Part shown: piece after piece, positions 35,232-41,621 of the stretch
Layout: every line of letters starts with the position of its first letter
How positions within the stretch are numbered: position 1 is the stretch's first letter
Sequence record: PQ330092
From: Escherichia phage JP4
Strand: one strand, 5' to 3'
Length of the DNA stretch: 64,000 nt
Position numbers and translations under genes: made by a program
The notes under the pieces: generated by a model
The model's input: only the letters and a program-made list of their open reading frames with translations
Told to the model about the DNA's origin: nothing
Database searches by the model: none

Positions 35232-38200
35232 TTAAGCTGTACGTTGTGCAATAAACATATCTGCTACTGGACTCACACCGTCATAAATGACTTGGTAAAT
35301 GGTCACACTACCAGCAGTTTTGTTTAGAGTTCCATCAACAACCGCATAAGTACCGTCAGTAGTAAAGTTTCTATTACCTGTTGTATCTTGTTTCACATAA
35401 ATGTATACTGAAGATGCTTTACCACCGCCGATTAGACCAGTGATTGGTGCTAGAGTTGTATCTTGATCTAGAGTGATAAAGTATACGTTGCTAGTACCGT
35501 CTGGGGTCCAAGTACCAGTTGGTGCGATAACAGAAGAAGTTACTTGATTAGGAATAACATCATATTTTTTAGTAGTTACTGTTGTAGTAGTCAAGTCAGC
35601 ATTAGTAGTTGTTAATTGACCAGTTACAGTTACATCTTTATCAAATACTGCATTTTCTTTGAAAGAAGATGTTGCATTGACAGTTAATGTATCAGCAGCC
35701 GCGTCACCTAAAACAACACTACCATTTGCAGTCATTAATCCAGTAACAGTTAAAGTACCACCGATTGTTGCTGCTCCAGTAACAGATGCACTAGCAAGTG
35801 TTGCTGCACCAGAAGTAGTAATAGTAGTTACTGAAGTTGCTGCTAGGGTTGCAGTACCTGTTGCAGAAATATCACCACCAACAGTTAGGTTACCAGAAGT
35901 AATCCCAACGGTTCCAGTAATGTTAGCACCACTTGACATTGTTACTGCACCACCAAATGAACCAGTAGTAGTTACTTCAAGGGTGTTCCCTTTTAGCAGA
36001 CCAGTTGCAGTAATACTTGTACCTGCGGTAATGCTAGTACCAGCAGCAACACTGTTGGTTGCAGTTAATGATTTAACAGCTACATCAGAGTTTGCTTGGT
36101 TTAGTGTTGCGTTTAGAACACCAGTTACTGTAAAGTTACCGTTGTTAACTACGTTACCATTGATTGTTAAGTTGTTGTTTTGTGAACCAACATCACCAAT
36201 AGTTGCTGATTTAGAAATCAACTCTGCACCAGAAGTAATATTACCCGCTGCACTAATAGTGTCAGCCGCAACAACTGCATAAGGTTCGATTGTTTGACCA
36301 CTAACATCAATATCAGCGTTGATACCACCATCTACACGCAAGGAACCAGCAATGTAAGTGTTAGGGAAAATCTGAACTGTTTCTGGTTGTTCACCGATCT
36401 TAGTACCAATAATAACATTAGAACCAGTTTTCACTGCACCAGAAGTTGTTAGTGAACCTAAAGTTGCTGCACCAGTTACACCTAGTGTACCACCAATTGT
36501 TGCATTGTTAGTAACTGCTAATGCAGTTCCTTCACCATTAAGAGCGATTGATGGAGCAGTTGCTGCACCAGTTACACCTAGTGTACCACCAATTGTTGCA
36601 TTACCATCTGAATGTAGTGTGGTTGCAACAGAAAGACTGTTTGCAACTACATCAGTACTAGCTAAATCCAATGCACCTGGCGTTAATGTACCAGTAATGT
36701 TAACATTATTACCAAAGGTTGCTGCACCAGTTACATCTATTGTAGTACTAAATGTACCAGAAGTTGCAGATACCGCACCTGAATCTAGTGAACCGACAGT
36801 TGCCTTTCCAGTTACACCTAGTGTACCACCAATTGTTGCATTGTTAGTAACTGCTAATGCAGTTCCTTCACCATTAAGAGCGATTGATGGAGCAGTTGCT
36901 GCACCAGTTACACCTAGTGTACCACCGATTGTTGCATTGCCGTTTGAATGTAGGGTTGTTGCAACAGAAAGACTGTTAGCATCTACATCAGTACTAGATA
37001 AATCCAATGCACCTGGGGTTAACGTGCCAGTAATATTAACATTGTTACCAAATGTTGCTGCACCTGTTACACCTAGTGTAGTACTAAATGTACCAGAAGT
37101 TGCAGATATTGCACCTGAATCTAGTGAACCGACTGTTGCCTTTCCAGTTACATCTAAAGTACCACCAACTGTTCCATTTGTGGTTACTGCCAATGTACCA
37201 GTACTTAATTCTTGTGCAGTTACCTTACCGGATGCAGTAACAGTTGAAGTGGAAACACCACCAGTTAGAGTACTTGCACCAGTAACACTTAATGTGGTTG
37301 CAGCAGTTACGCTATTCACGTTAAGATCAGCACCGGATAGGTCCAAACCACCTTCAGGAATAAATGCACCCTTAACAGTTAGTTTTTGTACAGTACTGTC
37401 ACCAGTTACATCTAGAGTAGATGCTGTAAGGCCACCATTCATACTAGCTGCACCAGTAACACCAAGGGTAGTAGTTACAGTTGCACTATTAAGGGTAGAG
37501 TCACCAGAAATATTAGCACTTGGTGCGGTAATAGTTCCTGCATCAACTTGAATACCACCATCAACTACTTGAATACCACCAGTATTAACTGTTAGTTTAC
37601 CACCAGTTGACAATGTGTTTGAAACTGTAGTTGCACCAGTTAACGTTGTGGTTCCAGTAACGCCCAAGTTACCAGAAATAGATGGACTACCTGTAATGTT
37701 ACCTGTAGTTAGAATCAAATCAGTACCTACAGTGGTAGAGCCAGTACTTTCTAGTGTTACACCGACGATGTTTGCAGAACTTAGGTCAATAGAACCATCA
37801 ACAGTTAAGTTACCTTGAACGGTTGCATCACCTAGAGAAGTTAATGTCTTCACAGACACATCAGTTGTGCTAAGATCAATAACACCCGCAGTTAGTGTTC
37901 CAGATACTGCTAAATTACCAGTAATCGCGGTATTTTTAGTAATGGATACATTTTCTGCCGCTGAAGTAATAGAACCAACAGTAAGTACACCACCAACAGT
38001 TGCGTTATTAGTTACATTTAGAGCAGTTCCAACACCAGATAGTGTTGCTGACCCACCAGTAATTGCACCTGAGATTGAAGCTGTTGCTGCTGAAACATCA
38101 CCAGAAACTACTGCATTTGTTGCATTTAGAGCAGACACTGTAACTTCAGTACTTTGAACTTTAGGTAGAACGTTGATACCTTCTGCACTACTAACTGTAA

Positions 38201-41200: not shown

Positions 41201-41621
41201 CAACATCAGCAGTAATATTACCTTTAAATGCTGTTGTTTCAGCAACTTCTAAGTTTTTAACTTTAGTTGCTTGTAGAGTGGTTGTACCAGCAGTTTGTGT
41301 AAAATCAGAACCAACTGATACAGTACCGTTAAAGGTAGCGTTTGAATTAATTGTTGCTGTATCAGACCCGACAACTGCACTACCGATTGTAGTATTACCA
41401 TCAACACCAAGACCACCAGAAAGTGTTGCTTTGCCACCAACATCTAAAGTAGATGTAATGTTGGCAGTTGATGATTCAATGGCAGTAAAAGTTGCATTTG
41501 CAAAAGTTACAGTACCATTTACAGTTAGGTTATTATTGAAAACAGCATTTCCTTTGACTAAAAGATCCTTACCAACCGTACCAGCACCAGTAATATCTAA
41601 GTCAGTTTTTATTGAGTACAT
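35232..41621 (-). CDS. Giant repetitive tail-fibre/adhesin-like protein (2129 aa)
   Basis: GGAGGG SD; Thr/Gly/Ser/Val/Asn-rich with multiple tandem repeated modules at protein and DNA level. Confidence 0.75.
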   Translation of the reverse strand: MYSIKTDLDITGAGTVGKDLLVKGNAVFNNNLTVNGTVTFANATFTAIESSTANITSTLDVGGKATLSGGLGVDGNTTIGSAVVGSDTATINSNATFNGTVSVGSDFTQTAGTTTLQATKVKNLEVAETTAFKGNITADVGTTAAFDKITANTAEITNVSTTDISSTGTATFKDVTISGTLGGEFNLSDLNAVTLNVTGASNQQGAVTFGANVTGINSTATFKDIRIGSNSESQTFRLSFPYTAPGKRPTVILQNEIQSELMSPANLTVLTSASFGNASLSSYGITGNGLNKLDYLTVSGNNTQSPDTPLLEVQKGKTKVADFEVTGTATIPNIESTGTANFNNINISGVLGGTFQLDDINAVTLNVTGATSLVGGVTLGSNITGYNSTATFKAISLGQNSQDAAVKLGFGYTAPGQRPTVILPNEVQSEVVSPSTLNVLKTATFGNASLSSYGITGNGLNKLDYLTVSGNETQAPDTPLLEVQKGKTKVADFEVTGTATIPNIESTGTANFNNINISGVLGGTFQLDDINAASLNVTGATSLVGGVTLGSNITGYNSTASFKAISLGQSSQDSAVKLGFGYTAPSQRPTVILPNEVQSELVSPSTLNVLKTATFGNAALSTYGITGNGLNKLDYLTITGNATQDPSTPFLQVGGKAILNDVDFTGTVTGLTVDVSGQDLTPNSVVAATNIKGATLESTGNTTVGAKLTVTGDIAGTTATLSGALSAGSVSSGSITGTTSVSAPTISASTEVTAPTITASGTVSGQTINGTNISATTLTAPTISGNTNFTENVDITGNLTVTGTVTPGTIDLSTTDVSAKSITTTAGANIGGDLVVQGSFDLSAADINVKSLTSSGIVKSNDLVNANVLPVLNSTTITATTVNADDITVTGSANLGTIYSSSSVLVGSTLTVTGETTTASLVTPTISNASGVTISNNTNVTGDLTVTGAVIPGSIDLATTDVNAKSITTTAGATIGGNLTVNGTVDLTTADVTVKSLTSTGAIVSNESTISSVLPKLQSTDATIATLGSTTANITNLNVTGASTVADVTSSGKVKAVSVETPTISNVDGVSISNNTSITGDLTVSGTVTPGAIDLSTTDVSAKSITTTAGANIGGDLVVSGTVDLSGADVSVKSLTSTGIITVSSAEGINVLPKVQSTEVTVSALNATNAVVSGDVSAATASISGAITGGSATLSGVGTALNVTNNATVGGVLTVGSITSAAENVSITKNTAITGNLAVSGTLTAGVIDLSTTDVSVKTLTSLGDATVQGNLTVDGSIDLSSANIVGVTLESTGSTTVGTDLILTTGNITGSPSISGNLGVTGTTTLTGATTVSNTLSTGGKLTVNTGGIQVVDGGIQVDAGTITAPSANISGDSTLNSATVTTTLGVTGAASMNGGLTASTLDVTGDSTVQKLTVKGAFIPEGGLDLSGADLNVNSVTAATTLSVTGASTLTGGVSTSTVTASGKVTAQELSTGTLAVTTNGTVGGTLDVTGKATVGSLDSGAISATSGTFSTTLGVTGAATFGNNVNITGTLTPGALDLSSTDVDANSLSVATTLHSNGNATIGGTLGVTGAATAPSIALNGEGTALAVTNNATIGGTLGVTGKATVGSLDSGAVSATSGTFSTTIDVTGAATFGNNVNITGTLTPGALDLASTDVVANSLSVATTLHSDGNATIGGTLGVTGAATAPSIALNGEGTALAVTNNATIGGTLGVTGAATLGSLTTSGAVKTGSNVIIGTKIGEQPETVQIFPNTYIAGSLRVDGGINADIDVSGQTIEPYAVVAADTISAAGNITSGAELISKSATIGDVGSQNNNLTINGNVVNNGNFTVTGVLNATLNQANSDVAVKSLTATNSVAAGTSITAGTSITATGLLKGNTLEVTTTGSFGGAVTMSSGANITGTVGITSGNLTVGGDISATGTATLAATSVTTITTSGAATLASASVTGAATIGGTLTVTGLMTANGSVVLGDAAADTLTVNATSSFKENAVFDKDVTVTGQLTTTNADLTTTTVTTKKYDVIPNQVTSSVIAPTGTWTPDGTSNVYFITLDQDTTLAPITGLIGGGKASSVYIYVKQDTTGNRNFTTDGTYAVVDGTLNKTAGSVTIYQVIYDGVSPVADMFIAQRTA
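36480..37130 (-). repeat. Two tandem ~320-bp coding repeats inside the giant fibre gene
   Basis: GTTGCATTGTTAGTAACTGCTAATGCAGTTCCTTCACCATTAAGAGCGATTGATGGAGCAGTTGC at ~36500 and ~36830. Confidence 0.75.
38200..39250 (-). repeat. Tandem ~420-bp coding repeats (at least 3 copies) inside the giant fibre gene
   Basis: Recurring GATCTCCACCAATATTTGC.CCAGCGGTAGTAGT... blocks at ~38270, ~38690, ~39120. Confidence 0.7.
39650..41190 (-). repeat. Three tandem ~510-bp coding repeats inside the giant fibre gene
   Basis: Landmark TAATCTAATTTGTTTAGgCCATTACCAGTAAT recurs at ~39717, ~40238, ~40738. Confidence 0.8.

Follow-up and report, generated by a model that had tools for sequence, protein, structure and literature searches.

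How did a single phage gene of more than two thousand codons come to be built from several families of tandem repeats, and what would the gain of a repeat unit mean for the fibre that it encodes? Phage fibres set the first engagement with the host, and Asteriusvirus phages are under development as therapy against E. coli. The question is raised by a gene of Escherichia phage JP4 (sequence record PQ330092), of which one stretch of 64,000 nucleotides (nt), hereafter the window, was analysed. A preliminary description, made from the letters of this DNA, had recognized at 35232-41621 a fibre or adhesin of 2129 amino acids (aa), composed of at least three families of repeats said to be near-identical, and had proposed recent expansion and recombination-driven variation of fibre length or specificity. 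Our analyses strongly favour a reading in which this protein forms a long fibre on the virion of a jumbo myovirus of the Rak2-like group, and in which its array of 510-bp repeats, family A, very probably grew from two copies to three through out-of-register recombination.

The open reading frame (ORF) is found where it had been placed, on the minus strand, and the source of the window is an Asteriusvirus, a Rak2-like jumbo coliphage. The protein has a skewed composition (T 18.6%, G 12.3%, S 10.4%, A 10.0%, V 9.8%, N 7.5% and no Cys) and is a member of a known, annotated family, a 99.7%-identical protein being already in GenBank: the gene shares 99.5% DNA identity over its full length, and 99.7% aa identity, with gp_304 of CRJP21 (vB_EcoM_CRJP21, Asteriusvirus). 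It is 93-98% identical to its counterparts in PBECO4, UB, 121Q, phAPEC6, G17 and other phages, which are variously annotated as hypothetical protein, tail fiber protein or long tail fiber proximal subunit; besides CRJP21 gp_304, the orthologues include UB AXC36801, 121Q gp571, phAPEC6 Gp256 and CBB_226, the last a protein of 1553 aa encoded in the same gene order as in the window. Its nature as a fibre, anticipated in the preliminary description, is borne out by the PHROG 4549 'tail fiber protein' profile, which matches it in 10 stretches (E-value, E, 5.5e-261; 869 bits), and by the presence of two orthologues in virions as detected by mass spectrometry: phAPEC6 Gp256 (1841 aa, 180.38 kDa), with 15 peptides and counted among that phage's three putative tail fibre proteins (PMC7247149), and CBB_226, with 10 peptides (PMC5259590). 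The protein matched no Pfam family even at E<=10; tblastn detected no paralogue of the gene within the window, and the bacterial genome contigs scanned contained no relative.

Both ends of the protein are conserved across the family, whose members range from 1175 to 2129 aa, those of the window and CRJP21 being the longest seen. Residues 1-160, presumably the end that attaches to the virion, were matched by tblastn in 60 phage records which, among the matches listed, belong to jumbo phages of ~320-390 kb except for one weak match in a 185-kb Synechococcus record; identity reaches 99-100% in PBECO4 and 121Q types and 45-51% in CBB, GAP32 and phages of Yersinia and Erwinia. Phages of the family infect Escherichia, Salmonella, Erwinia, Yersinia, Pectobacterium, Serratia, Cronobacter and Xanthomonas, and one infects Klebsiella; the Klebsiella phages Rak2 and K64-1 gave no tblastn match to residues 1-160. 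The MYSIKTDL start recurs in all 15 homologues retrieved from IMG/VR, as does a C-terminal domain of ~150 aa ending in ..D(V/M)FIAQR.., which is likewise found in 18 of 18 database homologues. A word-indexed search with the C-terminal 190 aa returned two proteins, and the C-terminal alignment was built instead from the matches of the first search; on the C-terminal domain of one homologue (P0019) sits the precomputed Pfam tag PF26209.

Between these ends, Tandem Repeats Finder, a repeat finder and self-blastn recovered three repeat families at the places claimed. Family A comprises three units of 510 bp (window 39612-41141), joined by a 966-nt self-alignment at 81% identity, with a longest exact run of 78 nt; identity is highest between A2 and A3 (81.2% nt, 80.6% aa), followed by A1-A2 (74.1% nt, 71.8% aa) and A1-A3 (61.8% nt, 55.3% aa). 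Family B consists of four units of 414, 435 or 465 bp that share 61-73% of their nucleotides over whole units, up to 80% over 194 nt, and 37-56% of their residues, each module being formed by a conserved core of ~75 aa (..ITGxLTVxGTVTPGxIDLSTTDVSAKSITTTAG..) followed by a variable tail. Family C contains 2.2 copies of a 336-bp unit, C1 and C2 being 90.5-91% identical in nucleotides and 90.2% in residues. The copies are thus not near-identical, as had been supposed, since identities lie between 62 and 91% (61-80% for B units) and in the best-conserved family some 9% of the bases still differ.

In a protein as strongly biased as this one, with many short degenerate motifs (families D3-D5 and D8), self-similarity might be thought to arise from the amino-acid or codon composition of a Thr/Gly/Val/Asn-rich shaft with no duplication at all. 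We regard the probability of this as practically nil. The off-diagonal blastn scores of the real gene are 902, 573 and 219 bits, against a mean of 31 and a maximum of 36 bits for the best off-diagonal score in 30 codon-shuffled versions of the gene, and the repeats therefore represent true DNA homology rather than shared composition; furthermore, the copies keep an exact 510- and 336-bp register, and whole units have been gained or lost between relatives. The self-comparison suggested in the preliminary description, in which a lack of significant similarity would have spoken against repeats at the DNA level, accordingly came out clearly on the side of the repeats. The copies have diverged substantially at synonymous sites (dS 0.25-0.39), and the ratio of nonsynonymous to synonymous divergence (dN/dS) is ~0.07-0.10 for the parts of A2 and 0.20 for C1-C2; such values, 0.07-0.2, indicate purifying selection on all copies, which are therefore functional parts of the fibre.

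Comparison with relatives, also called for in the preliminary description, revealed that orthologues differ in copy number by whole units of 510 and 336 bp. Their lengths are 2129 aa (window and CRJP21), 1959 (UB), 1841 (121Q and phAPEC6), 1834 (ph0011) and 1827 (UE-S1); according to blastn offsets, every relative but CRJP21 has exactly one 510-bp unit fewer, and 121Q, phAPEC6, UE-S1 and ph0011 have exactly one 336-bp unit fewer as well. Counts of A domains with a hidden Markov model (HMM) agree: the window and CRJP21 each have three, and CBB, GAP32 and all the remaining Asteriusvirus sequences have two. The middle A copy found three matching places in CRJP21 only, among 18 phage records. At jumbo-phage loci from IMG/VR the HMM detected two A domains in 9 of 15 and none in the remaining six, which are more distant, and a metagenome scan added only relatives that were two-copy or fragmentary, as judged by match length and not by domain counts. 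A third A copy is nevertheless not confined to these two phages: one homologue (P0002, 58% identical) has three A domains with a different, earlier breakpoint, and two others (P0007 and P0008) carry an older third copy, which brings the independent expansions of the A array to three or more. Two full C copies are confined to PBECO4-type phages, with one in 121Q-type phages, whereas B cores number four in all Asteriusvirus orthologues. The proposal of recent expansion consequently stands for families A and C, where it is lineage-specific and relatively recent, and fails for family B, which is old.

Separately from these module changes, in an Asteriusvirus subgroup of the Ecwhy_1 type (Ecwhy_1 itself, L007, 1-10506, with CMSTMSU, fEgEco12, WPEC5 and BF17) the entire fibre gene is tandemly duplicated, as two adjacent paralogous genes of 1644 and 1899 aa with a common N-terminus.

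The internal structure of the extra module indicates how it may have originated. A2 is a chimera: within the unit, nt 0-356 resemble copy 2 of the two-copy relatives and nt 357-509 resemble copy 1, and of the 190 sites at which the two copies of UB differ, approximately the first 120 follow copy 2 and the last 65 copy 1. In terms of the window itself, the 5' part resembles the third copy and the 3' part the first. The two parts meet in 13 nt (CTTTTGGTAATGC on the coding strand) that are identical in the parental copies. At finer scale, nt 0-203 are of UB type (96-100%), nt 204-305 of 121Q type (96%, vs 84-86% to the UB type and to the window's own A3), and nt 357-509 of copy-1 type (88-96% across three blocks), this last part being only 88-94% identical to the window's own A1. 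An ancestral array of two copies would have become three in the window and CRJP21 by one out-of-register recombination between copy 2 and copy 1, with its junction in the 13-nt identity; a single exchange of this kind would give the topology seen, namely copy 1, then copy 2 (5' part) joined to copy 1 (3' part), then copy 2. As A2 holds both PBECO4-type and 121Q-type segments, recombination among related phages was involved, and co-infecting relatives may have exchanged DNA during or after the expansion event. Identity between copies is for the same reason a poor clock, since the divergence of the A copies (dS 0.3-0.4) derives in part from imported mosaic alleles. With whole-unit differences among orthologues and the signature of unequal crossover in A2, the suggestion that the repeats provide a substrate for length variation is well founded. 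Module duplication by out-of-register recombination is a well-known route for changing the length of phage fibres.

The same third copy could also have arisen within a single genome, through slippage of replication or a template switch at a short stretch of identity. The junction identity of just 13 nt and the order copy 1, chimera, copy 2 are equally expected from slippage, and a neighbouring 1536-bp in-frame deletion at an imperfect short repeat demonstrates that short-homology events do occur in this region. Slippage in one genome, however, predicts parts identical to the resident copies, barring later exchange with other phages, and A2 departs from the resident copies both in its 121Q-type segment and in its copy-1 part; we therefore hold this route to be unlikely. 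Far less probable still is that the repeats, or the third A copy, result from misassembly. Repetitive fibre genes are often mis-assembled from short reads, and the PBECO4 and phAPEC6 records are fragmented or sparsely annotated here, but the A copies differ from one another by 19-38%, enough for unambiguous read placement, the ORF is intact, and a dN/dS well below 1 marks real coding copies. Moreover, the array recurs at 99.5% identity in CRJP21, a different genome as judged by two flanking-gene indels: relative to CRJP21, the window lacks the 1425-bp gp_302 segment and has the 1536-bp in-frame deletion in a neighbouring 713-aa gene. The presence of the three-copy array in two separate genomes thus argues against an assembly error.

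For family C, the single copy carried by the outgroups suggests that the 336-bp unit was duplicated in the PBECO4 lineage. The single copy of 121Q, in contrast, is C1-like in its 5' half and C2-like in its 3' half (31 informative sites), a pattern that suggests deletion of a 336-bp unit instead.

The overall architecture comprises an N-terminal end of 160 aa, the array of 170-aa A modules, four B modules, a beta shaft rich in Thr, Gly and Val that holds two C modules, and a C-terminal beta-sandwich of ~100 aa; the succession of A and B modules is common to the orthologues of the family. By sequence, the sole solved relative comes from Pectobacterium phage phiTE: a 'putative tail fiber protein' of 793 aa (9CUY chain g, E 7e-28), which is probably the long tail fibre, of Vequintavirinae type, described in PMC11972413. 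Residues 1943-2126 align with chain residues 610-792 (E 9e-13), and residues 550-778, from the end of A3 into the linker, with 205-447 (E 2e-7), so that the two proteins have in common a C-terminal region of ~185 aa and the A3-end and linker region with its recurring ..VTGxxxGxxxDxxGxDxxPxSV.. motif; their predicted C-terminal folds also match (Foldseek, BFVD K9L5R6, E 1.2e-12). They differ in that the phiTE protein, shorter by a factor of 2.7, has a single A-like region and begins with a helical 'rip-cord' bundle, which docks on the baseplate wedge and sheath initiator and has no counterpart in the window protein. Indeed, the PDB sequence search gave no alignment of chain residues 1-204 with the window protein, and residues 1-160 of the latter found matches by tblastn in jumbo-phage proteins only.

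That paper describes the phiTE long tail fibre as trimeric and predicts for it an extended beta-helix 512 Å in length, with residues 14-171 alone solved experimentally (PMC11972413), and the parts homologous to the window protein are therefore known only as predictions. By homology, the window fibre may likewise be a homotrimer. In the predicted model of its last 150 aa, an eight-strand beta-sandwich of ~100 residues is modelled with a predicted local distance difference test score (pLDDT) above 85 at residues 51-150. At E<=1e-3 this fold finds 190 predicted viral proteins in BFVD, for the most part C-terminal ends of phage tail fibres, that of phiTE among them, while the BFVD matches named 'Mtd N-terminal domain' reflect a generic beta-sandwich only; among solved structures, Foldseek retrieved the capsid spike of phage Pa223 alone (E 5e-4). 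The Bactofilin family PF04519 did not match the window protein, and its sub-threshold scores on relatives (27.7 bits in P0004, for a cut-off of 27.9, and 12.9 bits in P0001) hint at a beta-helical shaft and nothing more.

What, then, would an additional module do? At 0.65 Å per residue (512 Å / 793 aa), a crude extrapolation from the predicted phiTE model, an A module would add ~11 nm and a C module ~7 nm, and the whole protein would measure ~137 nm. Since the expansions leave the N-terminal end and the C-terminal domain untouched, a change in reach or flexibility is to be expected over one in receptor specificity; the specificity variation envisaged in the preliminary description finds no support, the C-terminal tip domain lying outside the repeats. 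The near-isogenic alleles with two A modules (UB and PBECO4) and three (CRJP21 and the phage studied here) offer a natural test of fibre length against adsorption and host range.

Which appendage the protein forms is a separate matter, one of location on the virion and not of repeat evolution. Instead of a baseplate fibre, the family of Gp256, CBB_226 and gp_304 might constitute the hairs (whiskers) that hairy Rak2-like phages bear on the tail sheath, and perhaps on the capsid, an assignment that we consider tentative and on balance doubtful. The hairs of CBB measure 119 +/- 10 nm and end in a tiny knob, its baseplate fibres measure 28.6 nm, and the hair protein was not identified in the source paper (PMC5259590); phAPEC6 has six short baseplate fibres plus hairs (PMC7247149). 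Proteins of 1553-2129 aa would extend over ~100-137 nm at 0.65 Å per residue, far too long for the short fibres and in the range of the hairs, although that length estimate, too, is extrapolated crudely from a model that is itself predicted. Hairy phages that carry the gene are CBB, phAPEC6 and fEgEco12, with no match in Klebsiella phages Rak2 and K64-1, and the best solved match of its C-terminal domain is the Pa223 capsid spike. On the other side, GAP32, not reported as hairy, has a homologue of 1557 aa, the gene sits among tail and baseplate genes, the one relative with a solved structure is probably a baseplate-anchored long tail fibre, and the peptide numbers are moderate, which does not point to a very high copy number on the virion. 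The literature on Sharanji, fEgEco12, phAPEC6 and CBB describes neither the repeats nor their copy-number polymorphism and assigns no hair protein, for which the present protein is a concrete candidate; if it does form the hairs, the gain and loss of A and C modules by unequal recombination of co-infecting relatives would tune hair length.

The name 'long tail fiber proximal subunit', which the GAP32 homologue bears as well, raises the comparison with T4 gp34, likewise a long, beaded, repeat-containing myovirus fibre protein. A PDB sequence search at E<=1 found no match to gp34 or to any other T4 fibre chain, however, and none of the profiled neighbours of the fibre gene resembles gp35, gp36 or gp37 or a fibre chaperone; the label lacks support from gp34 homology and looks carried over between records. 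The labels 'YadA domain protein' and 'autotransporter' of the PBECO4 and fHe-Yen9 records find no support either: no YadA head, stalk or anchor Pfam domain was detected even at E<=10. A closer parallel in mechanism is T4 gene 37: Tetart et al. 1996 are said to have described expansion of T4 host range by duplications of a small domain of the tail-fibre adhesin. There, too, tandem module duplication by recombination at short repeats lengthens the fibre, but the proteins are unrelated in sequence, and the segment duplicated in T4 lies in the distal receptor-binding region, with a host-range change reportedly demonstrated, whereas the modules of the window fibre lie in the proximal third (A) and in the mid-shaft (C).

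Several points weigh against the favoured reading of a long virion fibre lengthened by out-of-register recombination. Slippage and unequal homologous recombination yield the same chimeric topology, and 13 nt makes a short junction by the standards of classical homologous recombination; for the 336-bp unit, the signals of duplication and deletion conflict and the direction of change is ambiguous. The picture of discrete modules has no structural backing, and both the possible trimer and the value used for the rise per residue are taken over from the predicted model of a distant relative. An AlphaFold2 monomer of A2-A3 (360 aa, with an alignment of 16 sequences) was unusable (pLDDT 48.9; predicted template modelling score, pTM, 0.24), a poor outcome to be expected for one chain of what would be an intertwined trimer. 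Finally, copy number is tied here to no phenotype.

The coordinates of the features are collected in Table 1.

Table 1. Fibre gene of the window, its modules and the flanking features, in window coordinates.
Feature	Coordinates	Strand	Remarks
Fibre gene, 2129 aa	35232..41621	minus	single ATG-to-stop ORF
N-terminal domain, aa 1-160 (MYSIKTDL...)	41142..41621	minus	tblastn; conserved across Rak2-like jumbo phages
A1, first 510-bp / 170-aa module, aa 161-330	40632..41141	minus	97% to copy 1 of UB and 121Q
A2, extra middle 510-bp module, aa 331-500	40122..40631	minus	chimera of relatives' copies 2 and 1
A2 recombination junction, 13 nt, coding strand CTTTTGGTAATGC, FGNA motif	40279..40291	minus	identical in parental copies 1 and 2
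A3, third 510-bp module, aa 501-670	39612..40121	minus	96.5% to copy 2 of UB
B1-B4, modules of 145/138/155/155 aa, aa 786-1378	37488..39266	minus	older
C1, C2 and partial third, 336-bp / 112-aa modules, aa 1476-1724	36450..37196	minus	repeat finding, self-blastn
C-terminal beta-sandwich of ~100 aa, aa 2030-2129 (...DMFIAQRTA)	35235..35534	minus	conserved family end, predicted fold
DUF4376 protein, 259 aa, downstream neighbour (CBB_225, 121Q gp570)	34388..35167	minus	adjoins fibre gene throughout family
Virion structural protein, 298 aa, upstream neighbour (CBB_227, 121Q gp572)	41760..42656	minus	conserved synteny
Terminator-like hairpin, 13-bp stem then T run	41723..41751	minus	after upstream 298-aa gene

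The gene order thymidylate synthase, 654-aa protein, DUF4376 protein, fibre, 298-aa protein is the same in the window, CRJP21, UB, 121Q, ph0011 and CBB, and in UE-S1 within the stretch examined. The 654-aa neighbour belongs to PHROG 14293, of unknown function, and its counterpart CBB_224 is, like CBB_225, a virion protein by mass spectrometry (PMC5259590). Strong terminator-like hairpins at 41723-41751 and 34357-34380 (minus strand) bracket the fibre and DUF4376 genes as a two-gene unit; given the first of these hairpins and the GGAGG ribosome-binding site that precedes the fibre ATG, a separate transcription unit may begin with the fibre gene.

The two indels that separate the window from CRJP21 flank this unit. 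Upstream, at 42673-43278 (minus strand), an ORF of 201 aa stands in place of the 713-aa 'colanic acid-degrading protein' of CRJP21 (gp_306), 121Q (gp573) and UB; the in-frame deletion that produced it has its junction at ~42819-42837, and, with ~150 N-terminal and ~50 C-terminal residues left, the putative depolymerase core is lost. Downstream, at 34356-34379, between the 654-aa and 259-aa genes, the absent gp_302 segment codes in CRJP21 for a 455-aa 'structural protein'; it is also absent in 121Q and present in UB, and the junction falls in similar terminator-like hairpins that flank the segment in CRJP21.

The ORFs that run antisense to the fibre gene had been dismissed as artefacts of the repeats. 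Artefacts they are, although the repeats are not their cause: the seven ORFs all lie in one antisense frame, which holds 38 stops in 6.4 kb, and codon-shuffled genes devoid of repeats open likewise (antisense open stretches of 229 +/- 66 aa, maximum 509), which identifies codon composition as their origin.

Elsewhere in the window, a 3333-aa ORF at 52538-62539 (minus strand) matches PHROG 10938 'virion structural protein' end-to-end and has no similarity to the fibre; by size, it is probably the 381.88-kDa gp245 of phAPEC6 detected by mass spectrometry. The 505-aa ORF at 23324-24841 (plus strand) corresponds by position and length to the putative HNH endonuclease gp_291 of CRJP21, which makes it a possible homing endonuclease lodged among the structural genes. 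Lastly, the 197-aa ORF at 30781-31374 (plus strand) is the counterpart of CRJP21 gp_299, recorded as 'long tail fiber proximal subunit'; its match to PHROG 768, a DprA-like recombination mediator (E 1e-26), indicates that the gp_299 record is probably mis-annotated.

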